DNA from: an uncultured Myxococcaceae bacterium
GTDB lineage: Bacteria > Myxococcota_A > Polyangia > Polyangiales > Ga0077539
Length of the DNA: 64,000 nucleotides
Direction of reading: 5' to 3'
Assembly (NCBI GenBank): GCA_964447205.1
Contig: CAYUSB010000004.1
Coordinates: forward strand, 51,799 to 115,798
Positions 32,391 through 54,244 of this stretch are shown here, piece after piece. Both the position numbers and the translations under genes were made by a program. Below the pieces are notes generated by a model. The model saw only the letters and a list, made by a program, of their open reading frames with translations, was not told the origin of the DNA and searched no databases. Numbering within the stretch: position 1 is the stretch's first letter; every line of letters starts with the position of its first letter.

Positions 32391-32512
32391 CCCGTCGGGC
32401 AGGGCCATTCCTCCTCGCCGCTGCACCCAATACCCCCCGCACAGACCGGGTGCGCGGCCCCCCGCCGGGGTGCTACCGTCCCCGCCCCGTGAACGAGAGG
32501 GGACTGAAATCG

Positions 32513-35289: not shown

Positions 35290-37620
35290 TCAGACCGGGC
35301 GGATCACCCGCAGGCGGGCCCCGAGCTCGAAGCAGCCCAGGTGGCCGCTCTCTTCGGCCACGTACACCGCGCATTGCTCGTCGACCCGCACGAGGTCGGG
35401 CACGAGGTCGCAGGCTTCGAGCTCGGCCAGGACGGTTCCATCGCGGGGGCGGAGCACGGCGAGGCTGCTCTGCGGCACGAAGAGGGCCCCGGCCCGGAGC
35501 TGCACGTCGAGCCTGCGCGGGACATCGTCCGCCACGGGAGCCCGGAACGTGTGGGCCCACCGCAGCCGCCCGGTGTCCGCGTCGAGGGCCACCACCCGGC
35601 CCGTCGGGAGGTTGGCGACAAAGCAGTCGTCGAAGGCCGTCACCGCAGGCCGAGCCCCGCCCGGGCCGGTGACTCCGAGGGGCGTGCGGAATCGTTCCGC
35701 CCCCGTGGTGGCGTCGAGCCCGAGCAGGCTCACCCCCTCGCGCGTGAGGAGGGGAACGGCCACGGTATCGCCCGTCGCGCAGGGCAATCCGCACGCGGGA
35801 GAGTCGGACTCTGCGCTCCACAGGAGGGCCCCGGTGTAGGCCCCGAGGGCGTAGAGCCGGGCGGGGCTGCGGGCCCCGTCGCCCCCGAGGGCGTAGACGG
35901 CGTCGCGGTGAACCACAGGGGCCGTGGAGAAGGGAGCCCGGTGGCCGAAGCGCCAGACCCTTTCGCCCGTGGCGAGGTCGAGGGCCGTCACCGCGGCGTC
36001 GCCCGAGGTCACCACGAGGAGCCGACCCGCGCGGCGCATCCGGAAGGCCCCGGAGTGACGGGCCGCGTAGGTCCAGCGGGCCTCGCCCGTGCGCAGGTCG
36101 AGGCCCACGAGACGGCGTTCGCCCTCGGCCACGACCACCACCCGGGGCATCCCGGGGGCCGTCACGGCGTGGGCGAGGATCTGAGCCCCCACCCGCGGGG
36201 CCACCCGGGTGCTCCACAGGCTCTCGCCGGTGCTCACCGACCGCAGCTCGACCTCGCCCCGGGGAGAGACCCGCAGGATGTCCTCGCCCGCCAGGGTCGT
36301 GCTCGCCCGCGAGACGGGAACGGTCCAGACCACCTCGCCGCGGTTGCGGTCGAGGGCGTGCAGCTCGCGCACCCCAGGCACGAGGAGCTTGTCGCCGCAG
36401 AGGAGGGTTCCTTGCAGGTCGAGGCCTTCGATCTCGGCGCGCCAGCGGGCGGTGTAGCGGAGGCGGGCGGCCCCGGTGAGGTCGGGTTCGCGGGTCGAGG
36501 CCGGGTCGGACGCGGCCGGGACGCAGCGGTAGCGGGCCGGGTCGTCGTTGACCTGGGTGTCGACCCGGTCGAGGTCGCGGAGCCAACGGCGCAGGGCCCG
36601 GGCCTCGCCGCGCAGGGCACGGAGCCGGAGGTTGCGCCCGAGGCCCCGGTCGACCCGGACCATGGCCGAGGCCAGGGCCAGGGCCGCGTCGAGGACGGGG
36701 GTGACAAAGGCCCGGGGGTCGAGGGAGGGGGCCGTGACGCCCCCGTCGGCGGTGGCGGAGACGGAGAGGGCGAGGCGTTCGTCGGCCCCGAGGCGCAGGC
36801 CCAGGGTGGCGCTCCCGAGGTGAACCCGGAGGTGCAGGGCCCGGCGCGAGGTCCAGGCTTCGAGCAATGGGCGGCACAAGGCCACGAGGCGTTCGACCTG
36901 GAGGAAGACGAACCCGTCGGGCAGGGGGGCGTTCATCCCGCGGAGCGCGAGGGTGACCCGGCCTCGTACGAGGAGGGCCCGCAGGTCGCTCTGGGGCGCG
37001 CTCGGGGCGCCTCCCTCGACGGGGCCGGGGACGGCGCACACGAAGCCGAGCCCCAGGGTGGCCCGGGGTTGGGTCGCGGCGCTGGTCCAGCGGGCCTGGG
37101 TCTCGTCACCGCGTTGGGGGCTCCGCAGCCCGGACTCGGGGGCGGCTTTGAGTCGGCCGAGGGTGGCGTCGAGGTCGGCGCTGAAGGCGCTGTCGAGGAC
37201 GGGGCGCAGGGACGCGAGGGCCCGCTCGACGCTCTGGGCCACGGCCCAGGGAGAGACCGGGACGTCGAGGGCGATCACCTCGGGGTGGGTTCCGGTGCGG
37301 TAGAGCGTGGCCAGGAGGGTGCGGTCGCCGACTCCGAGGCAGAGCTCCCAGGGGGTGTCGTAGAAGGCTACGATCCGGCGGGGGCTTCGGCCTTCGCTCA
37401 CGGCCGCAGCGGCCTCGGCGAGGTCGCGCAGCACGAAGGCGGCGTGGTCGACCCGGGTGGCGGCCTCGCAGCGTTGTCCGGCCAGCTCGAGGGCGAGCTG
37501 GAGCGAGGCAGCGGGGGCCCGCTCGGGGGCGAGGCTGGCCACGGTGGCGCCGCGGGACTCGGCGCGGACGGAGGAGGCGCCTGGCGTGCGCTGCTGCAGG
37601 TGGAGATCGATGACCGGCAT
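35290..37620 (-). CDS. PQQ-like (BamB/YVTN-type) beta-propeller repeat protein
   Basis: Start ATG 37620-37618 (MPVIDLHLQQ...). C-terminal half carries ≥6 PQQ-like blades with the G-x-x-x-W signature: GEVVWTV, GESLWST, GEARWTY, GERVWRF, GALLWSA, GRLRWAH. Convergent with the MVP gene; the stops are 15 bp apart. Confidence 0.65.
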   Translation of the reverse strand: MPVIDLHLQQRTPGASSVRAESRGATVASLAPERAPAASLQLALELAGQRCEAATRVDHAAFVLRDLAEAAAAVSEGRSPRRIVAFYDTPWELCLGVGDRTLLATLYRTGTHPEVIALDVPVSPWAVAQSVERALASLRPVLDSAFSADLDATLGRLKAAPESGLRSPQRGDETQARWTSAATQPRATLGLGFVCAVPGPVEGGAPSAPQSDLRALLVRGRVTLALRGMNAPLPDGFVFLQVERLVALCRPLLEAWTSRRALHLRVHLGSATLGLRLGADERLALSVSATADGGVTAPSLDPRAFVTPVLDAALALASAMVRVDRGLGRNLRLRALRGEARALRRWLRDLDRVDTQVNDDPARYRCVPAASDPASTREPDLTGAARLRYTARWRAEIEGLDLQGTLLCGDKLLVPGVRELHALDRNRGEVVWTVPVSRASTTLAGEDILRVSPRGEVELRSVSTGESLWSTRVAPRVGAQILAHAVTAPGMPRVVVVAEGERRLVGLDLRTGEARWTYAARHSGAFRMRRAGRLLVVTSGDAAVTALDLATGERVWRFGHRAPFSTAPVVHRDAVYALGGDGARSPARLYALGAYTGALLWSAESDSPACGLPCATGDTVAVPLLTREGVSLLGLDATTGAERFRTPLGVTGPGGARPAVTAFDDCFVANLPTGRVVALDADTGRLRWAHTFRAPVADDVPRRLDVQLRAGALFVPQSSLAVLRPRDGTVLAELEACDLVPDLVRVDEQCAVYVAEESGHLGCFELGARLRVIRPV

Positions 37621-37887
37621 GCGTCCCTGTGCGTCGCGCGGAACAACGCCGACTGTGCTGCCCACGACCCCCCATCGCGGCGGAGCCTCCACCGCAACGA
37701 GGGCACTGCTCCCCCAGGGATACGGCGCGAGTCCCCTGCGCCGGGTCCTGAAAGATCGTGACCACCCATCCTCAGGATGTGTGGTGTCGGAGCGCATCGC
37801 GGCGTCGCGACGTGAACGGACCGTACGTCCCCGGCGTCCCCGGGTCGACTTTTCGACCGTCCCCCCGGAGCGGCCCGAGGCCGTGTT

Positions 37888-39117
37888 TTACGGTCCCGGC
37901 GTCGGGGGGCGGAGCTCTGCCGACGCGTCGCGTCGATGCATTCCCCGCGTGGCCAGCGGGCACAGGAGGGCCACGAGCACGAGGTGATACCGGTCGGCCC
38001 CGAGGAAGACCCCGTGGGTGGCCACCACCCCAAAGGCGGCCACGGCGATCACGCGCACGGCGGCAGACCCGCGGGCTACCAGGGCCCCGCGCAGGGCCAG
38101 GACCACGAGGGCCCACCAGCTCAGGGTGCAGGCCATCACGGCCCCGATCACCCCAACGGGGGGCAGGCCCCGGGGAGGCCAGGGCCAGAGGTAGCTCACG
38201 GGGTCGTGCTCCCAGCCGAAGGTGATGGCGAGCTTCCACAGCCCGCTGCGGAGCCACGTCCACGGGTCGCGTACGATGCGCCCGCGGGCCACCCGGGCCA
38301 TACATCGGTCGCGATGGACCTCCCCGTCCACGCGGTCGCACCCGTCGTCGGGACGAGGGCGACGGTAGCCTCCGCGGGCCTCGGGGAAGGTCCCGATGAG
38401 GAGGTTGCTTCCCCCGTTGGTGCTGATGAGGGCGCAGGCGTCGAGGCGGGCGCAGTTGCGGGCCGTCCAGGGCCCGACAGCCAGGGCGGCTCCGAGGCAG
38501 AGGGTGGCGGCCAGGACGAGGCGTCGCGTCCACGCGAGGGGAAGGGCCCACGGCGCCACGAGGAGGGCGAGGGAGGGCGGCCGAACGAGTCCCGCGAGCC
38601 CGAGGGTCACCCCGGCCCCGAGGGCGGCGGGAAGGCCCCTCAGGGGGCGGCTGCCTTGCGCGTGGTGGGACCGCAGGAGGAGGGCCGCGGCGAGGGCGAG
38701 GAGGGTTCCGGTGAGGGTCTCGGTCATGGCCGCGAGGGACCACAGGGCGGGGCCGGGGAGGAGGGCGTAGAGCATCCCGGCCCGCCAGCCGGTGGGGCGG
38801 TCGGCGAGGGTGGTTCCGAGGTGCATGACCACGAGGCACCCGACGAGGGCGGCGGCGAGGTTGAGGCCCACCACGGCCCGTTGCGGGTCGCCGAGGAGGC
38901 GCAGTGCTGCCGACAGGGCCGCGGGGTACCCCACGGGGTAGAAGGCCGTGGGGCGGTCGGGGGGGTGCAGGGTCTCGACGTAGCCGCGTCCGTGCGCGAG
39001 GGCCTCGGCGTAGCGGGCGTAGAAGAACCCGTCCCAGCGGGGGCGGGCGTCGAGGCTGAGGGCCAGGGCCGCCCGCACGGCCAGGGTGACCGCGGGGGGG
39101 ATCCAGGCCCGGGTCAC
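37888..39117 (-). CDS. GT39/ArnT-family (PMT_2-like) membrane glycosyltransferase
   Basis: GTG start 39117-39115, overlapping the upstream stop (GTGA). …RWDGFFYARYAEALAHGRGYVE…FYPVGYPAALSAAL… resembles the N-terminal loop-1 region of dolichyl/undecaprenyl-phosphate-sugar transferases. ≥9 TM segments. The upstream ~430 aa of track ORF 37888..40404 are rejected. Confidence 0.55.
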   Translation of the reverse strand: MTRAWIPPAVTLAVRAALALSLDARPRWDGFFYARYAEALAHGRGYVETLHPPDRPTAFYPVGYPAALSAALRLLGDPQRAVVGLNLAAALVGCLVVMHLGTTLADRPTGWRAGMLYALLPGPALWSLAAMTETLTGTLLALAAALLLRSHHAQGSRPLRGLPAALGAGVTLGLAGLVRPPSLALLVAPWALPLAWTRRLVLAATLCLGAALAVGPWTARNCARLDACALISTNGGSNLLIGTFPEARGGYRRPRPDDGCDRVDGEVHRDRCMARVARGRIVRDPWTWLRSGLWKLAITFGWEHDPVSYLWPWPPRGLPPVGVIGAVMACTLSWWALVVLALRGALVARGSAAVRVIAVAAFGVVATHGVFLGADRYHLVLVALLCPLATRGMHRRDASAELRPPTPGP

Positions 39118-41012
39118 GGCCCCGGGGGCATGCGGTACATGGCCATGGGGGAGTCGGGGGTGTGAAAGAGCCAGGTCGCTCCCGCGGCCCGGAGGGCGGC
39201 CTCGGCGGGGGTGTTGACGGTTACCCCGACCCACTTCGCGCGCAGGGCCCGAAGGCGCCGGAGGTAGGCCTGGGGGTCGCCCTCGGAGGAGACGAAGAGC
39301 ACCCGGTGGTCGTAGTTGTGCGACCACAGCTCGCCGAGGAAGTGGACCCCCTCGTCGTAGGCGAGGACGTCTCCGGGGCCGAGCTCCCGCTCCTTGGCGA
39401 GCATCCACTCCGAGGGCCAGAGGAAGGTGTCGATCTGCATCGAGGCCCGCTCGGCGGGTGTGGCCGCCCGGGCCTGGGCGAAGTACCGCGGGTGCACGAT
39501 GAACCCCCGGTAGCCCTCTTGATAGCCGTGCCAGGTGAGGGCCACGAGGGCGGCCGAGAGCACGAAGCGCCCCGCGGGGACCTTGAGGTCCCGGTGCACG
39601 ATGCAGAAGATGACCAGGGACGCGCAGCCCGCTGACAGGATGAACCGGGTCATGTACGGGACCGGGACCATCAGGGCCTCGACGAAGAGGACCAGGGGCA
39701 GGAGCCCGCGGCGCCAGTTGCGTCCGCGCAGGAGGTCGACCACGAGGACGACCACGCAGAAGAGGAGGAGCCAGCGGAAGACCGGGCCGAAGCCCCCCGA
39801 GCGCACGTCGGGGCAGTAGAAGGGCCGGGCGTTGTACCAGCTCGTGAGAAGCTCCTGGACGGCGTTGGGGGCCCCGAAGAAGGTGGGAGACTGGTCGGGC
39901 CCCGAGCCGTACTCGCGCCCCGGGTCGCTCGGTCCGTGGAAGTGAAGCCCCAGGGCCCGCACCTTCACGTCGAAGGGGAACATGGGGTTGCCCGTGTGCA
40001 GGAAGTTCTGCACGTACTTGAAGCAGCCGATCCCGAGGGCGAAGAGCCCGGAGGCGGCCACGTCGAGGGCGGTCCGGAGGCGTTTGCCGGTGGGGGTGTC
40101 GCGCACCTCGACCACGGCCCGCCCGAGGAGCCACGGACCCCAAAGGGCGAGGTGGAAGAGCCCCGTGTACTTGGCCCCAAGGAACAGCCCCCAACACAGG
40201 AACCCCATCCACCGGTCGCGGCGCTCGGGGCGGCCGAGGGTGAAGTAGATGGCGGCGGTGAAGAGGGCGTTCCAGGCCACGTCGACGTGGGTGGAGTGGG
40301 CCTGGAGGAAGACCGGGGGCATGGCCACCCAGACGGCCCCTGCGGCGAAGGCGAGGGGGCGCGAGGCCCCGACCCGGCGGGCCCACGCGGCGATGACGGC
40401 CCACCCCATGAAGAGGAAGGGGACCTGGCTGCTGTCATCGAGGCGGCTGTCGCGTTGCCAGATGCAGTTCCAGACGGCGAGGAGCTCGATGTTGTGGGGG
40501 TTGCCCTGGGTCCAGATGTTGGCCGTGGAGAGCCAGGCGAGGCTCCGCTCCTGGATGGCGTAGCTGGTCTTGGGGACGTGGTACCAGACCGGGTCCCAGG
40601 TCCACGAGCGGTAGTACCAGCACATCAGGATCACGGTCCCCGACGCGAGGAGGGCCGGGACCGCCGTAAACACGGCGATCTCGCGCTCGGAGAAGGCCTC
40701 GCGCCCGAGGCGCTTGAAGGCCCCGAGGTCGCCCCAGGCGAGGGTGCGGAGGGGGGCGAGGCCGCCGAGGCTGCGCAGGGACAGGGCGATGACGCCGGCG
40801 AAGAGGACCGTGGAGGCGATCCCGAGGGTGACGGGTTCGAGCCGACCGGCGATGCCGGTGGCGTGCAGGGCGAAGAGGAGGAGGCCCGTGCCGACGGCGA
40901 AGGCCGCCACCACGCGGTCGAGTACGCCCCGGTCGCGGTAGATTGCCGCCGCTGCCGCGTAGCTCGCCGCTGCGCACAGGGCGCTCTCGATCATCCAGAC
41001 GATCCAGCCCAT
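39114..41012 (-). CDS. large polytopic membrane protein, glycosyltransferase (GT39/GT83-like) family candidate
   Basis: 632 aa. ≥10 TM helices in the N-terminal 430 aa, then a soluble C-terminal domain. Translationally coupled (GTGA) to the downstream GT39-like gene. Confidence 0.45.
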   Translation of the reverse strand: MGWIVWMIESALCAAASYAAAAAIYRDRGVLDRVVAAFAVGTGLLLFALHATGIAGRLEPVTLGIASTVLFAGVIALSLRSLGGLAPLRTLAWGDLGAFKRLGREAFSEREIAVFTAVPALLASGTVILMCWYYRSWTWDPVWYHVPKTSYAIQERSLAWLSTANIWTQGNPHNIELLAVWNCIWQRDSRLDDSSQVPFLFMGWAVIAAWARRVGASRPLAFAAGAVWVAMPPVFLQAHSTHVDVAWNALFTAAIYFTLGRPERRDRWMGFLCWGLFLGAKYTGLFHLALWGPWLLGRAVVEVRDTPTGKRLRTALDVAASGLFALGIGCFKYVQNFLHTGNPMFPFDVKVRALGLHFHGPSDPGREYGSGPDQSPTFFGAPNAVQELLTSWYNARPFYCPDVRSGGFGPVFRWLLLFCVVVLVVDLLRGRNWRRGLLPLVLFVEALMVPVPYMTRFILSAGCASLVIFCIVHRDLKVPAGRFVLSAALVALTWHGYQEGYRGFIVHPRYFAQARAATPAERASMQIDTFLWPSEWMLAKERELGPGDVLAYDEGVHFLGELWSHNYDHRVLFVSSEGDPQAYLRRLRALRAKWVGVTVNTPAEAALRAAGATWLFHTPDSPMAMYRMPPGP

Positions 41013-41277
41013 GCGCTCGCGGGGGGTGAAACCACGTCTGCCGCGGAGGTGTCAAGGCGGGCCTTGCGCGCTGGGATTCGGACCAGGCGCCCGCGGGCCC
41101 GGAGGGACGGGCTACGGGCAGCGAAGCCGCAAGGGCGCAAGGTGCGCAAGGGTCAGAAGGTTTTGTGGGTGGGAGCGCGGCGTGACCCCCTCGGCGTCTC
41201 GTTGGGCGTCAAGGGCTGCGGGTCACCCCGGTGGTGAGCCTCGACCTGGGCTGGTCGTTCTGACCCGCGGGCGCTGC

Positions 41278-42183
41278 CTACGACCCGCGGCGCGCTCGTA
41301 CGAAGGCCTGGGTCTCCGCCGAGAGGGTACGAAGATACTCCTCCGGCAGCGTGCTCAACACCTCCAGGGGGAGGGCCCGCACCACGTCTTCGGGCGCGAG
41401 CCCAGCGAGGCGTTGTTCAGGCGTGAGTTCGGCGAGAACAACGGCTGGGTCCATGGAGGCGACCATCTTGGCGACGTCGCGCTCCCAGCGCTTCTTGACC
41501 TTGTCGATGTCCTTGGCCATGGCACCCTCTGGGCTGCGGGAGAGCTGCTCGATGCAGCGATAGAGGCGAGTGTAGAGGTCCCGCTCGCGGTCGTCCACCG
41601 GGCGTAGGGCGAGCTCCTCGGACAGAAACCGCGGGGAGATCACCCGCAGCGCCTCCTCCCGCGGCGCATCGCAAGCCACGCTGGTCTCCACAACACGCAG
41701 GGCGAAGGTACTCAGCCTGCCCTCGTACACCCCGGGACGCGCCGTCGGCTCCAGCACCCCACCCAACGCACGAAGCTGCGCCACGAAGCGGTCGGTGCGT
41801 GCAGGCGCCACGAAGCGCAGGCCCACCTCGGCCGGGTCGGACAAGGACCGCATGGCCATGTACTCCAGCACGTAGGCCAGGCCTTCCAGCACATCCGTGG
41901 CCTCCAGCGCGTCGGTCGCGCCCTTGAAGCTGAACACCGTGTGCAGCGGCATCCCGTCGAGCACCGAGGCCAGGCCCGCGGGAGGTGCCACCGTGGTGGC
42001 TGAGGGGTCGGTGCGGTGCACCACCACCACGTCGATCCGACGCGGTTCGCGCCCAAGTTGAAGCTCGGGCAGGACCTCCCACACTCGCAGGTCGAGCGAC
42101 GACTCCACCAGCACCACGAACATCGGATGCCACGCCGTACGCGGGGCCCGAGGGATACGCCGAGTCGAGCGGGGGCGGGCCAT
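41278..42183 (-). CDS. hypothetical protein, possibly Rpn/YhgA-like PD-(D/E)XK nuclease-family (transposase_31-like) protein
   Basis: Start taken at MARPRSTRRIP... (42183); an alternative is MFVVLVES.... Features: …RIDVVVVHRTD…TVFSFKGATD… (D…F-K) and a helical C-terminus (…LAELTPEQRLAGLAPEDVVRALPLEVLSTLPEEYLRTLSAETQAFV…). The 3' ~75 bp are duplicated at 42226-42311. Confidence 0.35.
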   Translation of the reverse strand: MARPRSTRRIPRAPRTAWHPMFVVLVESSLDLRVWEVLPELQLGREPRRIDVVVVHRTDPSATTVAPPAGLASVLDGMPLHTVFSFKGATDALEATDVLEGLAYVLEYMAMRSLSDPAEVGLRFVAPARTDRFVAQLRALGGVLEPTARPGVYEGRLSTFALRVVETSVACDAPREEALRVISPRFLSEELALRPVDDRERDLYTRLYRCIEQLSRSPEGAMAKDIDKVKKRWERDVAKMVASMDPAVVLAELTPEQRLAGLAPEDVVRALPLEVLSTLPEEYLRTLSAETQAFVRARRGS

Positions 42184-42268
42184 CGCATCGCTCCTACCGC
42201 CGCCACCCAGGCAGCGCAATCCCTGGATGCCACGCGACCGGTTGCGCTGACTTCGACCCGCGCCGCGC

Positions 42269-42676
42269 TCAGACGAAGGCCTGGGTCTCCGGAGAGGGTA
42301 GGAAGATACTCCTTCGGCAGCCGCAGGGATCACGGCAGCGACAGCACCCGCTGCCGCACGGGCACCTCTGGCCACAGCCCCGCAACCGGCGCCGCGGAGC
42401 GTGTGCTGGGGGGGCGAGGTCGGGGTCGCGGGCCACGAAGCGCGTGCCGTCCACGTGCAGGTCCCTCATGACGCCTCCGGATGACGGGGGCGCGAAGCGT
42501 TGACAGGAACTCTCCGCGCGACCACAGTGTTGCGGGGTGTCTTCCGCGTATCGTACGCCCAACGACAACATGGTCTCTTCGGAGCAGCGCGCATGGCTTG
42601 CGGGGCAGGGGCGTTCCGAGGCCGAGGTTGCGTCGTGGCAGCGCGGGATCCTCCCCGCTGCACAGGTGCGCCGCAT
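42269..42676 (-). pseudogene. remnant/degenerate tandem paralogue of the 41278-42183 gene (only the 3' end is conserved, frameshifted)
   Basis: 42226-42311 is ~88% identical to 41262-41350, with a 2-nt indel that shifts the frame. The ORF ends …RRSIFLPSPETQAFV*, versus …EEYLRTLSAETQAFVRARRGS* in the intact copy. The upstream part is not homologous. Confidence 0.3.
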
Positions 42677-43199
42677 GACGGCGAGCAGGTCCGACCCAGC
42701 GTGGGTGGTCGTCGGGGCGCTGGCGATCCCGGCGTTGCTGATGGTGGTCAGTGCGGCGGTGACGCACGCGCCGTGGGCCTTGGCCGCCGCGGGGGCTGGC
42801 GTCGCGGCTGTGGTGGCATCCGTGGTGTGGGCACTTGTGTCGAACCCCGCGCGGCGGATGGGCTTCGGTGCAGTGCAAATCCTTTGCGGCGAGCCGTGTC
42901 ATGCCGAACCCCGTGCGGAGACCGACGAAGAGGGCGTGACGCCGGGGTCACACGTCGTGCGTGGTATCTTTGTCGACTCCGCGGGTGGCTACTGGGGCAA
43001 GAACAGCTTCGTCGTGAGCGCGTGGGTCTGGGAGCGCATACCTGCTGTTTTCTCCAACGAGTCGCACACGTTATGCGAGCGTTTCACGTTCTACGTGGTG
43101 AGGCGGACGGGGGCTCCATGGGTGACGGTCCTCGCGGTGCTTCCGGGCTGGGAGTTGCCTGATCCGTGGTCTCCTCCTCCCAGTTCGGGAGGAGGGTGA
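42570..43199 (+). CDS. hypothetical membrane protein (orphan)
   Basis: ATG 42570 (MVSSEQRAWLAGQG...). One or two TM helices (WVVVGALAIPALLMVVSAAV…AAAGAGVAAVVASVVWALV). GC is visibly lower than its surroundings over 42.9-43.2 kb. Confidence 0.35.
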   Translation: MVSSEQRAWLAGQGRSEAEVASWQRGILPAAQVRRMTASRSDPAWVVVGALAIPALLMVVSAAVTHAPWALAAAGAGVAAVVASVVWALVSNPARRMGFGAVQILCGEPCHAEPRAETDEEGVTPGSHVVRGIFVDSAGGYWGKNSFVVSAWVWERIPAVFSNESHTLCERFTFYVVRRTGAPWVTVLAVLPGWELPDPWSPPPSSGGG

Positions 43200-43273
43200 G
43201 AGGGGGCGGGGCGCAGCGTGGCAGGCCAGTAGTTTCTGGGTGCCCCCCACCGTGGGATCGTAAGGGTCGCCAC

Positions 43274-43445
43274 GGCCCGAGACGCATCCGGGCTCCCGAT
43301 GCGCCCTGGACACGCTGGCCCGACACGCATCGGGGCCTCCGATGCACGCTGGATATCCCGGCCCGACACGCATCCCTGGCACCGAAGCCCCATAGACATC
43401 CTGGCCCGACCCACATCCGGGCCCCAGGTGGTGTGGGAGCGCGTG
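43274..43445. repeat. degenerate 43-bp tandem repeat x4 (GGCCCGACACGCATCCGGGC-core)
   Basis: Four head-to-tail units start at 43274, 43317, 43360 and 43403. Each begins GGCCCGA(C/G)(A/C)CGCATC(C/G)(G/C)GGC and has a more divergent 3' half. Lies in a convergent intergenic region. Confidence 0.6.
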
Positions 43446-43625
43446 TCTCCGGTCATCCCCCCGCCCCCCGATGCAGGTCGGGCATGGCCCCGCGCCAAGC
43501 ACCCGCTCGTGTGGAGCTCCAGGCCCACCGCAGTGTTGCCTGAATCCCCATGATGCGCTGTGACCTGCCGCCCGCCTGTGGCGCTGCGCGTGACCGCGCC
43601 GGATAACGCCGGGGCGCAGGTGGGC

Positions 43626-44636
43626 CTACGCGCCGGGATACGCCGCGTGGATGTCGCCGTCGAACAGCCGCCAGCAGAAGTCGTTCATCCGCGCCGCCGC
43701 AGGGGCGTGCCGGGCAAGGATGTCCGCCACGGCGGCCGGCACGTCCTGCGGGATGTCGCCGCCCGCGCATCGGCGCACGTACCTGTTGCGGTCGACGGGG
43801 CCACCGCTGGCCGGCACCGCGACCCCGCACACCGTCGTGACCAGCCAGTTGACCAGCCGCATCGCCGCGTACTCGGCATCGTGGCCGACGTGCCGCGCGA
43901 CGAACTCGCGCTCGGCGGTCGACAGGTCGAACCGGGGCGAGGTGGCCAGCCCGAAGTCGACGAGGTAGATCCGATCGTCGTCAGCCCGGATGTTGCCGAA
44001 ATGTCCGTCCATGTGCAGCAGCTCGCGGCGACGCAAAAACGCCACGATCTCGAACAGCTGCCGCTCGAAGAGCTCGGCCTGGCCGACCGGGTCGGTCAGC
44101 CGGTCGAGCAGCGGAGCGGGGACGTACTCGAGAAACAGCACGAGGCTGGAGGTCGCGGCGGCCAGTTCCTCGAGGCGGATGCGCACGGCCGGGGCGCCGC
44201 CAAACTGGGCGACGACGGCGTCGATGTCCAGCTGTTCGGACGCGATGGGTGCACGGCCGGGCAGCACCCGCCAGTGGTACAGCAAGGGGAAGGACGCCGA
44301 CTCACCGGCGAGGACTCCTTCGGTGACGATCATGTTCGCGGCCAGCTCGCGCCAGGCCCCGAAGCTCGGGCCGGCGCGGCCGTACATGCCGTACTGGCAG
44401 CAGGTCGGCAGGTCGAACAGGTTCGTTGTGCCGTGCGGATGCGCCAGCTCCCGGTCGGTGATCGGGATCCGCTTGGTGAACACCGGCACGCCGTCCACGT
44501 CGAGCACCGAGGAGCCGCCGCCCACCCCCACGGCGGGCCAGGGCGCGGCGCGCAGGACCGCCGCCAGCGCGTCGTCGTCGCGGGCGGTAAGCAGGGCCGA
44601 CATGCGGTCGTGGCGGAACCGTCGGAGGGAGCGCAT
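43626..44636 (-). CDS. protein-kinase-fold phosphotransferase (APH/choline-kinase-like family)
   Basis: Catalytic-loop-like HMDGHFGNI (HxDxxxxN) and YLVDFGLA (DFG) motifs. 336 aa. Confidence 0.6.
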   Translation of the reverse strand: MRSLRRFRHDRMSALLTARDDDALAAVLRAAPWPAVGVGGGSSVLDVDGVPVFTKRIPITDRELAHPHGTTNLFDLPTCCQYGMYGRAGPSFGAWRELAANMIVTEGVLAGESASFPLLYHWRVLPGRAPIASEQLDIDAVVAQFGGAPAVRIRLEELAAATSSLVLFLEYVPAPLLDRLTDPVGQAELFERQLFEIVAFLRRRELLHMDGHFGNIRADDDRIYLVDFGLATSPRFDLSTAEREFVARHVGHDAEYAAMRLVNWLVTTVCGVAVPASGGPVDRNRYVRRCAGGDIPQDVPAAVADILARHAPAAARMNDFCWRLFDGDIHAAYPGA

Positions 44637-44707
44637 CGCCCCCCATCATGCCAGGGGATGGCGGTCCCTCAAGCTGGAGCTTCCGAACCCTGCGCCCGCC
44701 GCACGAG

Positions 44708-45631
44708 TTACAGGGTGAACCAGGCCGCGCAGAGGGCCTCGAGCGAGCCCGGGGGCTCGGCGAAGCGGCGGACGATCCGCGGGAGGGTGGAGTACGGGTG
44801 CCGCAGGGTCCAGGCCAGGAGGGCTTCGGGGTCGGGGTCGAGACCGGCCGCGTCAACAAAGGCCCCGAGGCAGCCCGGGGCCCCCTGAAACACAAACTCC
44901 ACCAGCGAGGCCACCTCCAGCCCGGCCGGGGCGGCCCGGGCCTCGGCCCAGTCGAGGAGCGACACCACCCTCCACCCGTCCGGTCCCTCCTCCAGCCGAA
45001 CGTGGTCGCCCAGGAGCTCGGTGTGGCACACCCCGACGGGTGCCTCGGGGTCGACCGGGTGGGCCGCGAAGAGGGCTGTCGTCACGTCGGGGCCGAACAC
45101 CCCCCGCTGACGTCCCGCCGCCGCAGCCTCCGTGCTGCGCAGAAACTCCGGCCACGCCCGCACGCTCTCCGCGGGCGGCGCGAGGCCCTGGAGGCCCCGC
45201 ACGAGGTCGCCCAGGTGGCGGGCCAGGGCCACCCGGGCAGAAGGGTCGAGGCCAGGCCAGAGGTCTGACAGGGCCCGGCCGTGGACCCGGGTCATCACCA
45301 CGTAGGGCCAGCCCGAGACCTCGCCCGACGCCACGACCTGGGGAAGGGTCAGGGACAGGGCCGCCGCGATCCGGGGATAGTCCGCCTCGTTGACCAGATC
45401 GGCGGCGTAGCAGGGGGCCGTGAGCTTGAGGACGTGGGTGTCCGTGCCCCAGACCACGGCCGTCCCGTCCGAGAAGGGGACGAGCTCGCCCGGCAGGCCG
45501 TGCCGGGCCTGGAGGTCGCGCAAGACATCGCCCCACGCCTCCAGCGACAGGTGATCGCGTGTCTCCCGGGACGGGTCGTAGGGCGGCAGGGTGGGGGGCG
45601 CTTGACGCCCGGGACGCGGTGCGGTTCCCAT
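44708..45631 (-). CDS. aminoglycoside-phosphotransferase-like (APH) family protein
   Basis: …VCHTELLGDHVRL… (Brenner-like H-x-D/E motif) and …VVSLLDWAEA… (IDWE-like). 307 aa. Adjacent to, and in the same orientation as, a second kinase-fold gene. Confidence 0.6.
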   Translation of the reverse strand: MGTAPRPGRQAPPTLPPYDPSRETRDHLSLEAWGDVLRDLQARHGLPGELVPFSDGTAVVWGTDTHVLKLTAPCYAADLVNEADYPRIAAALSLTLPQVVASGEVSGWPYVVMTRVHGRALSDLWPGLDPSARVALARHLGDLVRGLQGLAPPAESVRAWPEFLRSTEAAAAGRQRGVFGPDVTTALFAAHPVDPEAPVGVCHTELLGDHVRLEEGPDGWRVVSLLDWAEARAAPAGLEVASLVEFVFQGAPGCLGAFVDAAGLDPDPEALLAWTLRHPYSTLPRIVRRFAEPPGSLEALCAAWFTL

Positions 45632-45648
45632 CGCAGCGTGGCTACACC

Positions 45649-46644
45649 ATGAGGGCCCCGTTCGACCACGATCCGTCGGCCCTCTCGCGTCGTCGGGCGA
45701 TCCAGTGTGGGGTCCTGGCCCTCGTCGGCTGCGGTCGCCCCGTGACGGAACCGTCGTCGGACTGGGGCGCCGCGGGACTCGGTCGCCCGCGTTGGCTCGC
45801 CTCGGCAGGGGAAGACCTCTTCTTCCTCGACGATTCCCCCGGGACCCGCGGAGGCGGGGCGATCTTCCGGCTCCCGCACGCGGGCGGGCTTGCCCGAGGG
45901 GTGGTCTTCGAATCCACGGGCATCACCGGGGCGGCCGTGTGGCCCGAGGGGATCGTCTGGGTTCCGCGCCGCGGGGGCGGGGCCCTGAAGCTGCTGGAGC
46001 ACCGACACCCCGAGGCATCGCGCGTCCTCACGACGGGCCCCGCGGCCTGGAGGGAGGCCCTGGTCACCGACGGGGTCGATGTCTTCGGCTCCACCGTCGG
46101 CGGCCCCCTGGTGGCTGTTCCCCTCGCCGGAGGGCCCAGCCGGAACCTCTTCCCCGAGCCCGCCACGGCCCTCGCTCTCGCCCCCGGGGTCCTCGTCTTT
46201 GTCGCAGGCGACACCCTCCGGGTGGTCCCGCGCCAGGGCGGTTCCTCGGCGCCTCTCGCTCCCGCCCGCGGGGTGGGGTCCCTCGTCGTGCGGGGGTCGT
46301 ACGCCTACTGGGCGGAGCGTTCTCGTCCCCTCGGGGCACGGACCGGGGCCTTGCGTCGGGTGGCCCTCGCAGGGGGGCCCGTCGAAACCCTGGTTGCGGG
46401 CATCGCCGACCCTGAGGCCCTCGCGGTGGGCGGGGCGAGGGCCTGGTACGCCGGGGCGGTGTTCGATCCCGAGGCCCGGCGCGGGGCCCGGGTTCTGGGG
46501 AGCGTGGACCTGGGCAGCCGCAGCCACCGGGAGGGGTCTTGCCCGGTCGGGGTCACGGCCCTGCTCTGCGAAGGGGCCTCCCTCTATCTGGTCGGGACCC
46601 TCGGGGCCAAGGTCGGGGGCGTCGTGCGCAGGCAACCCGCGTGA
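45649..46644 (+). CDS. hypothetical Tat-signal lipoprotein
   Basis: MRAPFDHDPSALSRRRAIQCGVLALVGCG has a twin-arginine motif plus lipobox. Gly/Ala-rich, beta-like remainder. Confidence 0.45.
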   Translation: MRAPFDHDPSALSRRRAIQCGVLALVGCGRPVTEPSSDWGAAGLGRPRWLASAGEDLFFLDDSPGTRGGGAIFRLPHAGGLARGVVFESTGITGAAVWPEGIVWVPRRGGGALKLLEHRHPEASRVLTTGPAAWREALVTDGVDVFGSTVGGPLVAVPLAGGPSRNLFPEPATALALAPGVLVFVAGDTLRVVPRQGGSSAPLAPARGVGSLVVRGSYAYWAERSRPLGARTGALRRVALAGGPVETLVAGIADPEALAVGGARAWYAGAVFDPEARRGARVLGSVDLGSRSHREGSCPVGVTALLCEGASLYLVGTLGAKVGGVVRRQPA

Positions 46645-46988
46645 GGCTGGGGCCCTCGGCCGTGTGTGCGGTGGTCCTCGTCGGGTGCGGATCTCGGACG
46701 GTGACCGACGCCCGGTGGACCTTCCGCTGGGACGTAGACGGCTCCGTGGTCGACGACACCTGGACCGACCGGGTCGCGACCTGCGCCCGCAGCGCAGCCG
46801 ACGCGGAGAACGCCCGGGCCCTCGTGCACCGCAGCCACGTGGCCGTCTGCGACCGGCGCTGCGCCCGCGGGGCGGAGGCGGACTGGGGGCCCTGCTGGCT
46901 GCGCTGCGAGGCGGTCGTGACCCTGCGCGACCGACGCTGCACCGAGCGCCGACGGGTGCTGCCACGACCGCCGTTCTGGATCCGCTGA
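46641..46988 (+). CDS. small Cys-rich lipoprotein, hypothetical
   Basis: GTG start overlapping the upstream stop (GTGA at 46641-46644). VRLGPSAVCAVVLVGCGS lipobox. 9 Cys in 115 aa. Confidence 0.35.
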   Translation: MRLGPSAVCAVVLVGCGSRTVTDARWTFRWDVDGSVVDDTWTDRVATCARSAADAENARALVHRSHVAVCDRRCARGAEADWGPCWLRCEAVVTLRDRRCTERRRVLPRPPFWIR

Positions 46989-47011
46989 CGGGCCCCGCTG
47001 GGGGGGACGGG

Positions 47012-47884
47012 CTACGTGCCGCTCTTGCCGCGCAGGACCACGTCCTCGCCGTGGACCCCCCGCAGGAGCTCGAGGTCCTTGTTGGAGCCGAGGAGGAGGG
47101 CGATGTTCTTGTCGGTGAGGGCGTCGAAGATGGCGGCCCCCTGGGGGTCGGGGACGAGCTCCTTGTACATCCGCGACAGGGCCTCGAAGTCCTTGATGAA
47201 ACACGCCCCCCCGGCCCCGCGGCCCGACTTGTGGATGGGATTCATGTACGTGGGGCCGTTGTCGGGATCGGCGGCCATGGCCTGGCGGATCACGTCCCAG
47301 CTCACGTCGTGCTTCGTCACGAGCTCGTAGAACAGGTTGATGAACACCACCCGCACGAACCCCAGGGCGTTGCGCCCATACTTGATGAACTCCGCCTCGC
47401 GGGCCGAGCACACGATGGCGTAGTTGGCCTTGGGCAGGACCTTGAGGACCTCCTCGGCCGCGGCGTGGTACTCCGCGGAGTCCACGGGGATGCCCACGAT
47501 GTTGCGGGTGGGGTTTTCCGCGTCGTGTTTGGCCGTGGCCACCGACAGAAACTCCGGCGAATGCATGACCATCACGTCGGGGTACTGCCGCTGGATCGAC
47601 TCCGTCGTGCCGGGCAGGAGGGTGGACTTGATGACCACCGTCTTGCCCTTGCCCACCAGCCCGATGCAGCTCCGCACGATGCTGTCGTCGAAGCCCTCGG
47701 GGGTGGTCGGGGTCGGCACCGCCACGAAGACGATGTCGCACTCCTTGATGAGCCCGGCGTTGCCCGTGTAGGGCTCCTCCTTGGCGTAGCGGGCCACGGC
47801 GTACCCGCGGCGCTCGAAGTCGTCCGCGTAGGTCTTGCCGATCCAGCCCTGGCCAATGAATCCAATGGTCTTCTGTGTGGTCAT
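47012..47884 (-). CDS. NDP-sugar dehydrogenase family protein (UDP-glucose/GDP-mannose 6-dehydrogenase-like, short form)
   Basis: Start ATG 47884-47882 (MTTQKTIGFIGQGWIGKTYA…, a Rossmann GxGxxG). Catalytic-Cys motif GGACFIKD (compare UDPGDH GG.CF.KD). Only 290 aa, so it lacks the C-terminal UDP-binding domain. Confidence 0.65.
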   Translation of the reverse strand: MTTQKTIGFIGQGWIGKTYADDFERRGYAVARYAKEEPYTGNAGLIKECDIVFVAVPTPTTPEGFDDSIVRSCIGLVGKGKTVVIKSTLLPGTTESIQRQYPDVMVMHSPEFLSVATAKHDAENPTRNIVGIPVDSAEYHAAAEEVLKVLPKANYAIVCSAREAEFIKYGRNALGFVRVVFINLFYELVTKHDVSWDVIRQAMAADPDNGPTYMNPIHKSGRGAGGACFIKDFEALSRMYKELVPDPQGAAIFDALTDKNIALLLGSNKDLELLRGVHGEDVVLRGKSGT

Positions 47885-47991
47885 GGTGCGCGTGTCCCTG
47901 CTCCGGGAGCGGTCAAGGGCGTCGGTCTCGCCCGGGGGAGTCTCGATGCTGGCCGGGAGGTGTATCCGAAGTTGGCCCGTCGCGCAGCACC

Positions 47992-48463
47992 TCACGCGCC
48001 GCGGGCCCCCAACCAGGCCGCCAGGGCCCGCCCGTCGCCGGTCACCCTCTCCACCCTGGCCCCCTCCAGCACGACCCCAAGGTCGGCCGCCAGGACCGCC
48101 CCGAGGGCCTCTGCGTTGGCGAGCTGGAGCCCCGCGCCCTGGTTGGCCCGGACGGGGGCGTCGCGTTTGAGCTCGACCACCCACACCGCGCGATGGCCCG
48201 GGTCGGGGGGCGACATATCCACGGCCGCGAAGTCGCCGCAGCGGCGCTGCTGGTGCGTACGAAACAGCCAGAAGCGCGCGTGATGGCCCAAGAGGGCGCG
48301 GGCAAACTCGAGCTCGTCGCACTTGAACGCAAACGCGTGCCGGGCCTCGTCGGGATCGACCCGTCGGGCACGATGGAGGGCGTGCGACATGCGCTCGATC
48401 ACGTCGCGGCGCGCGACTGAGGCGCGCGGGAGCCGCAAAAACCACGGGACTATTCTGCTCATG
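47992..48463 (-). CDS. small PD-(D/E)XK nuclease-superfamily protein (YraN/UPF0102-like), hypothetical
   Basis: Start ATG 48463 with AGGAGA 8 nt upstream. …CDELEFARALLGHHARFWLFRTHQQRRCGDFAAVDMS…VWVVELKRD… gives an E…D…E-x-K arrangement like YraN (GE…GEIDLIA…VFVEVK.R). Confidence 0.4.
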
Positions 48464-48765
48464 ATGTCTCTCTCCTGCGGCTGCGGCCCCATCGGTGCGG
48501 GCGGCAGCTCCCCTACGGCGTCACGACTACGAGGACGGGGGCGGTCAGCAGAGGACAATCATGGCGAGGCCGGTGGTAGCGCAGGCCGCGGGGTGCGTCA
48601 ACGCAGGGGCCACGGGCGAGGTCGTCGGCACCGGGGTGTTCGGTCACGACGTGACGCGATGCCTCAGCGGCCCCCTCGTACGAGGGCACCACGCCGGGCG
48701 GACGGGGCCCTTCCGGGCTGCGCCCGGCTCTTGCAGCGGCGCCAGTTGTGCGCAGGAGGTCAGCC

Positions 48766-49800
48766 ATGAAGCTCAACACTCGAGAGAAAATTGGGATCGC
48801 GGTGGCCCTCGGGGTAGGGGCCGCGGTCGCGCGTAGGCTGCTCCGGGCGCAGTATTCGTTCGCGGGCAAGACGGTGCTGATCACGGGGGGATCGCGGGGC
48901 CTGGGGCTGGTCCTGGCCCGGGCCTTCGCGGCCGAAGGGGCCCGGATCGTGTTGTGCGCCCGCGACCTGTCGACCCTGGGCCGGGCCTGCGACGAGCTCG
49001 GGGAGGCGGGGGCGGAGGTCCTTGCGGTCGCGGCCGATGTGACCCTCGACCTGGATGTCCGCTCGCTCCTGGCCGCGGTGGGCGACCGCTTCGGGCCGGT
49101 CGATGTCCTGGTCAACAACGCCGGGACCATGGACGTGGGCCCCCTGGAGTCGATGACCGAGGACGACTTCGCCCGGGCCATGGACACCCACTTCTGGGGC
49201 CCCCTGCGGCTGATGGAGGCCGTCCTGCCGTCGATGCGGGACCTGGGGGCGGGGCGCATCGTCAACGTGGTGTCGATCGGCGGGGTCGTTCCGGTGCCGC
49301 ATATGATCCCGTACACGGCGAGCAAGTTTGCGCTCGGGGGATTGTCCGAGGCCATGGCCGCAGAGCTGGTCCGCGAGGGGGTGACGGTGACCACGGTGTA
49401 CCCGGGGCTGATGCGCACGGGCTCGACGCGGCACGCCCGCTTCAAGGGCCAGCACCGGGCCGAACACGCCTGGTTCACCCTGCTCGATGCCCTGCCCCTG
49501 GCGTCGATGAACGCGGGACGGGCGGCACGGCAGATCGTGGAGGCCTGCCGTCGCGGAGATGCCCGGGTGGTGCTGTCCGTGCCTGCCAAGCTCGCGGTGT
49601 TCGCGCGGGGGGTGGCTCCCAACCTGGTGGCCCGGGTGACGGGCCTGGTGGGACGCCTCCTGCCGACCCCGGGGGGGCTCGGGACCGCGTCGCGTAAGGG
49701 CTACGAGAGCGAGTCCCCGGTGACCCTCTCGGTGCTCACGGCCCTCGATCGCAAGGCCGCCGCGGCCAACAACGAGGTCGCCCCGGGCAAGCCCAACTGA
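48766..49800 (+). CDS. short-chain dehydrogenase/reductase (SDR) family oxidoreductase with N-terminal TM anchor
   Basis: MKLNTREKIGIAVALGVGAAV (TM), then TGGSRGLGL (TGxxxGxG), NNAG, and catalytic Y…K in …YTASKFAL…. Confidence 0.85.
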   Translation: MKLNTREKIGIAVALGVGAAVARRLLRAQYSFAGKTVLITGGSRGLGLVLARAFAAEGARIVLCARDLSTLGRACDELGEAGAEVLAVAADVTLDLDVRSLLAAVGDRFGPVDVLVNNAGTMDVGPLESMTEDDFARAMDTHFWGPLRLMEAVLPSMRDLGAGRIVNVVSIGGVVPVPHMIPYTASKFALGGLSEAMAAELVREGVTVTTVYPGLMRTGSTRHARFKGQHRAEHAWFTLLDALPLASMNAGRAARQIVEACRRGDARVVLSVPAKLAVFARGVAPNLVARVTGLVGRLLPTPGGLGTASRKGYESESPVTLSVLTALDRKAAAANNEVAPGKPN

Positions 49801-49830
49801 CACGAAACGCCCATTGCACGAGGTGATCCC

Positions 49831-50292
49831 ATGACCACGCCGAACCGCAAGACCCCCGGAGGTCGATCGAAGCCGGTGGCGCCCCCTGCCCGGACCCCGC
49901 GGGCCTCCCGGGACAAGACCCCCGCGAGCGCAGAGGCCCCGCAGGCCCGGAGTCACTCCAGGAGCTTCTATGCCGAGGCCCGACAGCGGGCCGTGCGCCC
50001 GGACGACGCCCACGCCTTCGTGAGCGACCCCGCGGAGCGCCAGGCTCCGGTCACCGACGACCTCGCCGAGCAGCTCGCCGAACAGTATGTGGCCTCGGCC
50101 ACCTCGGGCGCCGACGCGGCCTCGGAGTCCGTCGACGACATCGTTCCCGAGGAGGTGGGGGGGCCCTTCGTGCTGTCGAGCTCCGAGCGTGAGTTTGCGC
50201 CCGGCACCGACGCGTCCAACCCCCCCGACGCCGAGGTCGAACCCTTTCCCGCGCCGATGAAGTCCCCCGCACGCGGTCCCCGGTCGGGCTGA
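49831..50292 (+). CDS. hypothetical low-complexity (disordered, Pro/Ala/acidic) protein
   Basis: ATG with GAGGTGA 5 nt upstream. 153 aa, with no recognisable domain. Confidence 0.3.
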   Translation: MTTPNRKTPGGRSKPVAPPARTPRASRDKTPASAEAPQARSHSRSFYAEARQRAVRPDDAHAFVSDPAERQAPVTDDLAEQLAEQYVASATSGADAASESVDDIVPEEVGGPFVLSSSEREFAPGTDASNPPDAEVEPFPAPMKSPARGPRSG

Positions 50293-50294
50293 GC

Positions 50295-50615
50295 CTACAG
50301 GGGCCCCCTGCGGGTGACGGCGAGGATCTCCCGCACGAAGCTCACCCGCGGGGCAGGGGCGCTGTACCCATGGGCCGACCGACCCGCCACCGTGAAGGGG
50401 TAGGGCCTCGAGACTTCCCCGAAGCAGATGATCGGGTCGCGGGCCACGTACACCCGCTGCCCGTCAATCGTACGCAGGGTCACCTCGACCCCGTCGTCGG
50501 TCGTGGTCGGAGTCGCCTCCGGGGTCGGGGCCGTCTGCGCCCAACCGTTGCCTGCACAGAGCGTAAACCCCATCGCCAGGGTCGCCGCCATGCCCGTCTT
50601 GTGTGCGCGCTTCAT
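50295..50615 (-). CDS. small secreted hypothetical protein
   Basis: MKRAHKTGMAATLAMGFTLCAGNGWAQTAP is a signal peptide. 106 aa. Confidence 0.4.
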   Translation of the reverse strand: MKRAHKTGMAATLAMGFTLCAGNGWAQTAPTPEATPTTTDDGVEVTLRTIDGQRVYVARDPIICFGEVSRPYPFTVAGRSAHGYSAPAPRVSFVREILAVTRRGPL

Positions 50616-50916
50616 CGGGAGTCTCCCATTGTGGTCGAGCGGAGGTCTCGGAGCTGCTCTGACCCCCTCGGCCTACGCAAGCACGGCCCCGAGCTCTTGT
50701 CACTGCGGGTCTGGGCCGCGGCATCGAGGCCGCCGGGTACATCCCCCACGGTGCAGGGCCGAGGCGCGTGACCGGCCGTCGTCGCGGACCGTCGGTCTGC
50801 GGCGGACTGCCGCGGTGGGTGTTTGACACCGTATGGCAGTCCCACTACACCGCGGGGTAGCGGTCGCTGGATGGGAGACTGGTCACCCTCCTGCGTGCCC
50901 TTCGCAGGAGCTGAGA

Positions 50917-53154: not shown

Positions 53155-53230
53155 CCTGAGGCCCACCCCCCGCACGCCCGCGCAGAACCTCCCGCTGCGC
53201 GGGCCTCGGCTCGTGTAGAGTCCCCGGGTC

Positions 53231-54187
53231 GTGGTGGTCGAAGCGTACCGGTCGGTTGTCCCCCCTCTGCGCGCCTGGCTCGTCGTGCCCGGGCCCGAAG
53301 TCCCTGCCCCTGCGGCCGTACGGGCCGCGGTCGTCACCGCTCGATGCCTCATCCACCAGGCCGATGACGCCCGACGGGCCGACGCCCTGGGGCTCCTCGG
53401 CCTGGAGCTTCCCTCCGCGGCCCCTGCCGCGGCCCTGGCTGCACAACGAGAGGCCCTGCGCCTGGTCCTGTCGGCCCGGGAGGGCCTCGACGAGCCGCTC
53501 CCCACCGTGGCCGAGGCCCTGCAGACGCCCGCCGGGGAGGCCTTCTGCGCGGCCTACCCCGCGCTCCCCGCGGTGGTCCTGCGTACGGCCGAGGCCGACC
53601 TCGACCACGACCCCGCCGCCCTCAACGCCGCCGTCGACGCCCTCGGGACCGCCCTCGAAGCCGAGCTGTCCGTGGTCGAACCCTCCGTCCGCAGTCGCCG
53701 GATGCGGGCCTTCCTCCGCCTGGAGCGCACCCTCCTGACCGTGGGGCTTCTGGCCCTCGGGGCCATGGGGCTGCGCGCGGTGGGCCTGTCGATGCGCACC
53801 GATCACGCGGTCCACGCGGTGTGGCAGGCCAGCTCGGCGGTCGACGGGTACACCCGCACGGGGCGGGGTTTTCATCCCATCGAGGGCCGCTTCAACATCT
53901 TCTTCCAGACCGCGGTCGAGGCCGAGCCCTGGGTGCGCTTCGACCTCGGGGCCGTGCGGGCCGTGCGGGCCGTGCGGGTACAAAACCGCCTCGACAACCA
54001 CCAGGACTGGGCCGTCCCCCTCATCCTCGAGGTCTCGACCGACGGAACCTCCTGGCGCGAGCTCGCCCGCCGCGTCGAGCCCTTCTACTTCTGGCAGGCC
54101 ACGTTTCGTCCCACCCGGGTCCGATGGGTTCGGCTCCGGGTGCCCCGCCCGACGAGCCTCCAGCTCGGGCGTGTCGAGATCCGCTGA
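53231..54187 (+). CDS. hypothetical membrane-anchored protein with C-terminal F5/8 type C (discoidin/galactose-binding-like) domain
   Basis: TM LLTVGLLALGAMGL. C-terminal …FFQTAVEAEPWVRFDLGAVRAVRAVRVQNR…WAVPLILEVSTDGTSWREL… resembles discoidin-domain core strands. Confidence 0.45.
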   Translation: MVVEAYRSVVPPLRAWLVVPGPEVPAPAAVRAAVVTARCLIHQADDARRADALGLLGLELPSAAPAAALAAQREALRLVLSAREGLDEPLPTVAEALQTPAGEAFCAAYPALPAVVLRTAEADLDHDPAALNAAVDALGTALEAELSVVEPSVRSRRMRAFLRLERTLLTVGLLALGAMGLRAVGLSMRTDHAVHAVWQASSAVDGYTRTGRGFHPIEGRFNIFFQTAVEAEPWVRFDLGAVRAVRAVRVQNRLDNHQDWAVPLILEVSTDGTSWRELARRVEPFYFWQATFRPTRVRWVRLRVPRPTSLQLGRVEIR

Positions 54188-54244
54188 GGGGCTCCCCCGC
54201 GCGGGGCGACAAACCCATCGGTCTACGATATGGTCCCGGGACCT

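Follow-up and report, generated by a model that had tools for sequence, protein, structure and literature searches.

Analysis of the 64-kb window (the whole stretch of DNA that was analysed) revealed a tandem array of about six 43-bp units in a non-coding gap between two convergent genes. Its most probable explanation, held at a probability of roughly 0.6, is a lineage-private minisatellite, i.e., a locally amplified GC-rich hairpin that is now decaying and has at most a generic hairpin role. The array consists of head-to-tail, non-coding repeats within the 10-100 bp range that defines minisatellites or variable number tandem repeats (VNTRs). As neither copies nor relatives of it were found elsewhere in the sequence searched, it is most likely an ordinary product of local duplication rather than a new genetic element.

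Organization of the tandem array

The array comprises approximately six in-phase 43-bp units from 43274 to 43531. In the following list, units 1-3 were scored against the consensus of all units while units 4-6, along with the flanks, were scored against a consensus from units 1-3 alone:

43274 to 43316, + strand: unit 1, 38/43 matches to the consensus, best-kept palindrome
43317 to 43359, + strand: unit 2, 38/43 matches, perfect 7-5-7 inverted repeat GCATCGG-GGCCT-CCGATGC
43360 to 43402, + strand: unit 3, 35/43 matches, palindrome already broken
43403 to 43445, + strand: unit 4, 26/43 matches, first half alone retained
43446 to 43488, + strand: unit 5, degenerate, 22-23/43 matches, retaining the second half CCCCGATGCAGGTCGGGC
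43489 to 43531, + strand: unit 6, strongly degenerate, 21/43 matches

The four 43-bp units that the sequence-only reading had described at 43274-43445 were present in phase, and TRF reported an array at 43274-43423 with a period of 43, 3.5 copies, 74% matches, no indels, and a score of 160. This compared with a score of 81 for the best array with a period of at least 20 when the whole 64-kb window was shuffled 40 times with its dinucleotide composition preserved. The first four units were exact as described, but the array is longer than that, with two further degenerate units in phase at 43446 and 43489. Matches to the consensus of units 1-3 were 26, 22, and 21/43 at 43403, 43446, and 43489, respectively, against a background of 13.1 ± 3.0 in which 26 matches are reached at approximately 1e-5 of positions, 22 matches at 0.003, and 21 matches at 0.008. 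The phase positions outside the array, 43231 and 43532, gave background values of 12/43 each. The left edge of the array is sharp and unit identity drops in one direction only, rightwards. Autocorrelation of the array displayed peaks at lags 43 and 86 alone, and a 21/22-bp sub-period within the unit was rejected as no peak occurred there.

The first half of the unit was better conserved than the second in units 1-3, with the first 20 nt alike at 16-18/20 positions and the last 23 nt at 15/23 (50/60 versus 45/69 identities among the three units). This supported one part of the earlier proposal of a conserved 20-bp 5' half, while the 20-mer quoted for it, GGCCCGACACGCATCCGGGC, is a consensus with no exact copy, from which units 1-4 deviate at 1, 1, 3, and 2 positions, respectively. 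Allowing up to three mismatches, the 20-mer had four matches in the 64-kb window, every one within the array, versus 0.15 expected. The decaying 3' half described for the units was likewise seen in the less alike last 23 nt of units 1-3 and in unit 4, which keeps its first half alone. The array had also been judged unlike a CRISPR and this held, with the entire 43-bp unit repeated without spacers and no cas domains within ±10 kb.

The units are palindromic in the register i to 40-i, with 12, 10, 7, 9, 7, and 7 Watson-Crick pairs out of 17 for units 1-6, respectively, over a background of 5.1 ± 1.9 pairs (probability of approximately 3e-4 for at least 12 pairs and 0.013 for at least 10). Unit 2 contains the dyad GCATCGG-N5-CCGATGC, unit 1 almost does, and units 3-6 have lost it. 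The 17-nt palindrome arm is GCCCGACACGCATCGGG. A near-perfect 17+3+17 palindrome can be deduced for the ancestral unit, because the second half of unit 5 mirrors the first-half consensus, its reverse complement matching at 15/17 positions. An "inverted fifth core" at 43466-43483 was considered as a BIME-like inverted partner and rejected, being the in-phase second half of degenerate unit 5. A single compensated pair was identified between units 1 and 2 (G8-C32 versus C8-G32) which, together with the better-conserved first half, could reflect some constraint on the unit.

The non-coding gap and its neighbouring genes

The array occupies 258 bp of the gap between the following genes:

42537 to 43199, + strand: left neighbour, 220-aa ORFan with hydrophobic segments, GC 0.63-0.68, 174 or 209 aa in other assemblies
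43200 to 43625, no strand: 426-bp non-coding gap between the convergent genes
43626 to 44636, - strand: right neighbour, 336-aa kinase-fold protein with weak kinase-family matches
44708 to 45631: next gene to the right, APH family

The convergent, intergenic, and non-coding setting first assigned to the array was confirmed, with two 3' ends flanking it and codon-position GC flat over 43150-43560, unlike in the flanking genes. The GC content of the gap is 0.71-0.73 with no AT-rich unwinding element. A coding repeat was ruled out by this flat codon-position GC, by the period of 43 that is not divisible by three, and by the array-spanning ORF whose codon pattern is the most gene-like (43299-43553), for which no homologue was identified among 1.84 billion representative proteins. 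No tRNA was found around the array, no Rfam (Rfam 15) match at E≤1 was obtained for 42000-45000 on either strand, and a site scan of the gap identified neither sigma-70-like promoters nor U-tailed terminator-like sites.

The stop codon of the ORFan lies 75 bp ahead of unit 1. Its sole match among 5.8 billion proteins was itself and it had no Pfam, NCBIfam, or PADLOC match, which together with the GC content supported its earlier description as an orphan, lower-GC gene; the hydrophobic segments are in keeping with the membrane protein proposed there. The 336-aa gene has its stop codon 95 bp beyond unit 6, or 181 bp beyond unit 4, and carries its own hairpin directly after this codon. The encoded protein displayed weak matches, below Pfam cut-offs, to the Pkinase, ABC1, and Bud32 families and a weak match to the catalytic-loop region of kinases in the PDB. 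With regard to a defence-system context, PADLOC gave weak kinase-domain matches only. The "duplicated nuclease-like gene" reported next to the array was not recovered, as the right side instead carries two unrelated kinase-fold genes, the 336-aa gene and the APH-family gene, that are not paralogues, and the left side a multi-copy Polyangiales hypothetical gene. The 336-aa protein might be a small-molecule or antibiotic kinase since its gene adjoins one of the APH family.

A variable island on the core chromosome

The window overall represents core chromosome, including mreB-mreC-PBP2-rodA, transaldolase, TldD/PmbA, and an ECF sigma factor. No replication, partition, integrase, transposase, RAYT, or Cas domain was identified among its scanned ORFs and called genes. 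The array is part of a variable segment:

41069 to 53260, no strand: 12.2-kb variable island containing the array, flanked by backbone common to the nearest relatives

An F5/8-type-C gene bounds the island on one side and a conserved 632-aa gene on the other, the latter having led to the nearest different genomes. These two relatives, metagenomic contigs L022 and L023, shared 74-80% nucleotide identity with the window over 35290-41068 and 53261-55951 and carried 3.6-3.9 kb of other genes in place of the island, namely a UvrA-like ATPase plus a VF530 protein in one and two uncharacterized 500-aa proteins plus a VF530 protein in the second. The site has the appearance of a gene-turnover hotspot. 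As the nearest relatives have other genes here, the segment that had been called accessory-looking is truly accessory, and both relatives lack the array along with the whole island.

The 43-bp array was identical in the three assemblies carrying the locus, which may represent one population. The window was identical to Logan contig SRR8863431, while the sole difference from ENA contig ERZ27284381 in 20.9 kb was one 21-bp unit in a tandem repeat of approximately six copies at 51040-51174, which is probably coding as its period is a multiple of three. Further tandem repeats at 63882-64000 (periods of 15, 30, and 45 bp) and 1114-1228 (15 bp × 7.7) are presumably coding. The conserved backbone also holds two eukaryote-like genes. 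One is a major-vault-protein homologue on the + strand, with a 920-aa product ending at 35275 that matches Vault_3 (faintly) and MVP_shoulder; the longest ORF with this end spans 30917-35275. The other (54188-56080, + strand) is a homologue of copper type II ascorbate-dependent monooxygenases.

Comparison with phased protein-binding arrays

On paper, the architecture is that of the sopC centromere of the F plasmid, in which a 43-bp repeat occurs 12 times in direct orientation and each copy contains a 16-bp inverted repeat that SopB binds (PMC3177203). The period of 43 bp, the direct orientation, and the inverted repeat inside the unit are all common to both. A phased protein-binding array of the type of sopC, an iteron set, or a multi-operator would have sites every 43 bp (approximately four helical turns and on the same face) where a dimer recognizing GCATCGG-N5-CCGATGC or the first half of the unit builds a nucleoprotein complex. 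The better conservation of the first half and the 43-bp spacing maintained without indels are consistent with such binding. However, the array has no sequence similarity to sopC and its units are only ~74% alike, with the dyad intact in units 1-2 only (two of six). In addition, neither sopA/sopB-like genes nor ParA, ParB, Rep, or any other candidate DNA-binding partner was identified in the island or among the ORFs scanned in the window. The array is set in core chromosome without an AT-rich unwinding element, no similarity to plasmid or phage records was detected, and the array is not conserved in any relative. An iteron or other protein-binding identity, as offered by the sequence-only reading, found no rep, par, or AT-rich element to accompany it and is therefore unlikely. 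The more specific case of a working phased platform for a DNA-binding protein of the Polyangiales lineage, in which the right-hand units would be spent sites, is very unlikely on the present analysis; if true, such a platform might for instance seed the assembly of a silencing complex, or of one resembling a segregation complex, on an island gained recently.

Searches for further copies and the REP families

A profile of the unit identified no second copy in the 64-kb window, in the 20.5 kb searched of another contig of this sample, or in related loci totalling 134 kb, such that the copy searches covered ~85 kb of DNA from the source organism. The pattern GGCCCGASACGCATCSGGGC gave 16 hits in 185,579 species-representative genomes (596 Gb), one per genome; the taxa are unrelated, similarity ends with the 20-mer, and ~29 hits had been estimated by chance. 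No self-hit was obtained and the source genome is therefore absent from this collection. A tolerant two-core pattern retrieved five unrelated short tandem repeats from JGI metagenomes (periods of 21, 42, and 14/29) and none from the viral contigs scanned, and blastn of the unit versus plasmids and phages gave no match. The core that had been put forward as a possible dispersed repeat family thus occupies a single locus in all sequence searched. The sequence-only reading had named a core occurring nowhere else in the genome, combined with an array absent or variable without consequence in close relatives, as the outcome that would speak against it, and as far as the available sequence reaches this is what was observed.

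The five JGI repeats (L024, L025, L026, L027, and L028) are GC-rich tandem arrays starting GGCCCGA..C.CATC, with units of 42 bp in L026. The L025 repeat at 495-557 has a 21-bp unit, GGCCCGAGCCGCATCCAGGCG, in three copies that matches the core of the 43-bp array at 18/20 positions; this likeness is probably chance since 12 of the 18 matching positions were imposed by the search pattern. The L025 repeat lies upstream of a gene whose product starts with a DWGGTL-type motif and was read by eye as HAD-like. An unrelated non-coding minisatellite was identified between two genes of a related JGI contig (L030 7596-7755; 58 bp × 2.8, 79% matches, TRF score 195) within the 134 kb of related loci, showing that related DNA has one-off intergenic arrays as well.

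Were the array a local cluster of a species-private, low-density REP/REPIN-like family, dispersed by a RAYT-type transposase encoded elsewhere, the remaining copies would lie beyond the ~85 kb covered. E. coli and Pseudomonas typically carry a REP every 5-15 kb or so, and at such densities several further copies would be expected in the window and the 20.5-kb second contig, yet there were none. Similarly, none of the 185,579 species representatives had more than one match to the core. The unit resembles REP, BIME, and REPIN elements (PMC2817692; PMC3337134) as an imperfect palindrome of ~37 nt and thus of REP-like size, in an extragenic position between convergent genes. Its regular spacing is also that of REP clusters (BIMEs), and REP families are described as extragenic with >100 copies per genome (PMC2817692). 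Unlike these elements, the array is not dispersed, all six units are direct rather than alternating, and neither end of the palindrome has the conserved GT[AG]G head (GTAG or GTGG). Furthermore, no RAYT gene lies nearby and no Y1-transposase domain was identified among the scanned ORFs or called genes. The earlier REP/BIME assignment is quite unlikely in view of the missing second copy in the window and related loci and the 16 single genome hits without flanking similarity.

Rearranged DNA around the array

Duplicated sequence was identified to the left of the array. The gene at 41278-42183 (301 aa) encodes a hypothetical protein from a multi-copy Polyangiales family that has no domain assigned, and paralogues of the gene elsewhere match over the gene itself only. 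An 80-bp direct duplicate of its 3' end (41271-41350), 88.8% identical, occurs upstream at 42244-42321, and next to it lie 65 bp (42331-42395) that match an intergenic stretch on a further contig of this sample (L029 7881-7945). On this side of the array, rearrangement has thus produced a mosaic of duplicated gene fragments. A single tblastn hit, weak but collinear, hinted that the array was the 5' region of a decayed 301-aa paralogue under the ORFan, but a profile HMM of 114 family members and the window copy recovered only a short C-terminal remnant (42186-42329), and this explanation was dropped.

To the right, the 336-aa protein has homologues at 75-90% identity across Myxococcota (Myxococcus, Pyxidicoccus, and Kofleriaceae) and Actinomycetota (Micromonospora, Dactylosporangium, Cellulomonas, and Occultella). 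Three loci (L003, L004, and L005) matched the window at ~89% nucleotide identity from 43609 to ~44660 only. These loci are from Pyxidicoccus, Myxococcus, and a contig whose neighbour genes look actinobacterial, and their contexts are unrelated. Homology stops within ~20-30 nt of the ORF on both sides (43609-44667 in the window) and, judging from this sequence pattern, the gene looks like a solitary gene spreading between phyla. The array was considered as part of this mobile kinase-like gene and rejected, as nucleotide homology ends 17 nt beyond the stop codon in three other loci and no tandem repeat was present downstream of the gene in the homologous loci, even beside IS elements.

Were the array a scar from insertion of an island block such as the 336-aa gene or the ORFan, namely what remains of a mobile-element end or recombination junction, this would explain why the array lies between blocks of apparently different origin (the lower-GC ORFan and a gene 89% identical in other phyla) and next to duplicated fragments that show past rearrangement. 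Units 1-4 are also flanked by a 10-nt inverted pair, GGGGGCGGGG and CCCCGCCCCC, with the right arm inside degenerate unit 5. By our own estimate, however, one GC-only inverted pair of 10 nt is approximately what chance provides in 600 nt at such GC, and with no other copies identified a MITE with these terminal inverted repeats was rejected. The window contains no transposase, integrase, or matching second end, the unit had no match in the viral, plasmid, and phage collections, and the loci of the 336-aa gene elsewhere lack the array. Consequently, the mobile-element terminus suggested earlier has a chance as slim as that of the REP families.

Predicted folding of the units

RNA folding favoured the - strand, where unit 1 was predicted at -23.6 kcal/mol (z -2.67) and unit 2 at -18.1 kcal/mol (z -0.96), versus -13.7 kcal/mol for both units on the + strand (z 0.0 for unit 1). 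The A-C mismatches of the + strand become G-U on the - strand, so that units 1 and 2 form 15 and 14 pairs there out of 17, as compared to 13 and 13. Unit 2 did not fold better than shuffles on either strand, nor did unit 4, and unit 3 folded worse than its own shuffles. The folds of the whole array and the whole gap were not significantly better than shuffles (z -1.25 to -1.47). The fold of unit 1, the compensated pair between units 1 and 2, and the G-U pairs of the - strand would suit a structured non-coding RNA, i.e., a small RNA or 3'-UTR element with a specific regulatory role, but this is the least probable of the alternatives given the decay of units along the array, the whole-array folds, no Rfam match at E≤1, and no promoter-like site in the gap.

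Proposed origin and decay, and possible role, of the array

A decaying minisatellite accordingly remains the preferred reading, and the following course is proposed for it. A GC-rich palindrome of ~37 nt in the non-coding gap, of the form GCCCGAC-NN-GCATCGGG, 3 nt, CCCGATGC-NN-GTCGGGC, would have been the starting point. Its head-to-tail amplification with a 43-bp period probably occurred by replication slippage or unequal recombination, as the copies are partial and graded and mobility genes are absent. Bacterial intergenic minisatellites are thought to arise by these same processes. The array would have decayed since, with units 4-6 older and nearing background. Units 1-3 appear to be a younger, more uniform layer that was copied from an already diverged unit, given the derived changes common to their second arms. 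Neither a dedicated protein nor a mobility function would have been involved.

Mycobacterial MIRU loci are intergenic tandem repeats of 40-100 bp, dispersed at dozens of loci with strain-variable copy number. The array is similar to MIRU/VNTR loci in being head-to-tail, non-coding, tens of bp in period, and high in GC, with a partial terminal copy and diverged units; unlike MIRU, it occurs at one locus in the sequence searched and its unit is palindromic.

Any activity of the array would probably be generic. In transcripts from either gene, units 1, 2, and 4 may fold into U-less, GC-rich stem-loops that would terminate transcription as tandem or convergent hairpins or would block 3'-exonucleases, as is common in high-GC bacteria. 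In WebGeSTer, terminators typically have -15 to -25 kcal/mol and the U-less (I-shaped), tandem (U-shaped), and convergent (X-shaped) classes become commoner as GC rises, with predicted terminators clustering within 50 nt of the stop codon (PMC3013805). The GC-rich hairpins of the array lack a U tail, are <50 nt apart, and lie between convergent genes as in these classes, and units 1-2 on the - strand are inside the WebGeSTer energy range. In contrast to the WebGeSTer terminators, the weaker + strand (-13.7 kcal/mol) is outside that range, half of the units no longer fold, and the distances from the hairpins to the two stop codons (78 nt and >180 nt) exceed the typical <50 nt. A terminator or 3'-protection role is held loosely on these predictions, because the hairpins are far from the stop codons and the 336-aa gene has its own hairpin.

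Implications

The array in itself matters little, being one more local amplification of hairpin-forming GC-rich DNA in a high-GC genome. It provides another case of short-lived tandem arrays sitting in strain-variable islands, and its one-directional decay from a young, uniform end to an old end is a record of how the array grew. The locus could be used as a marker for strains if genomes of relatives become available. Should the array bind a protein or terminate transcription, it would constitute a compact example of a 3' region tuned by repeat amplification.
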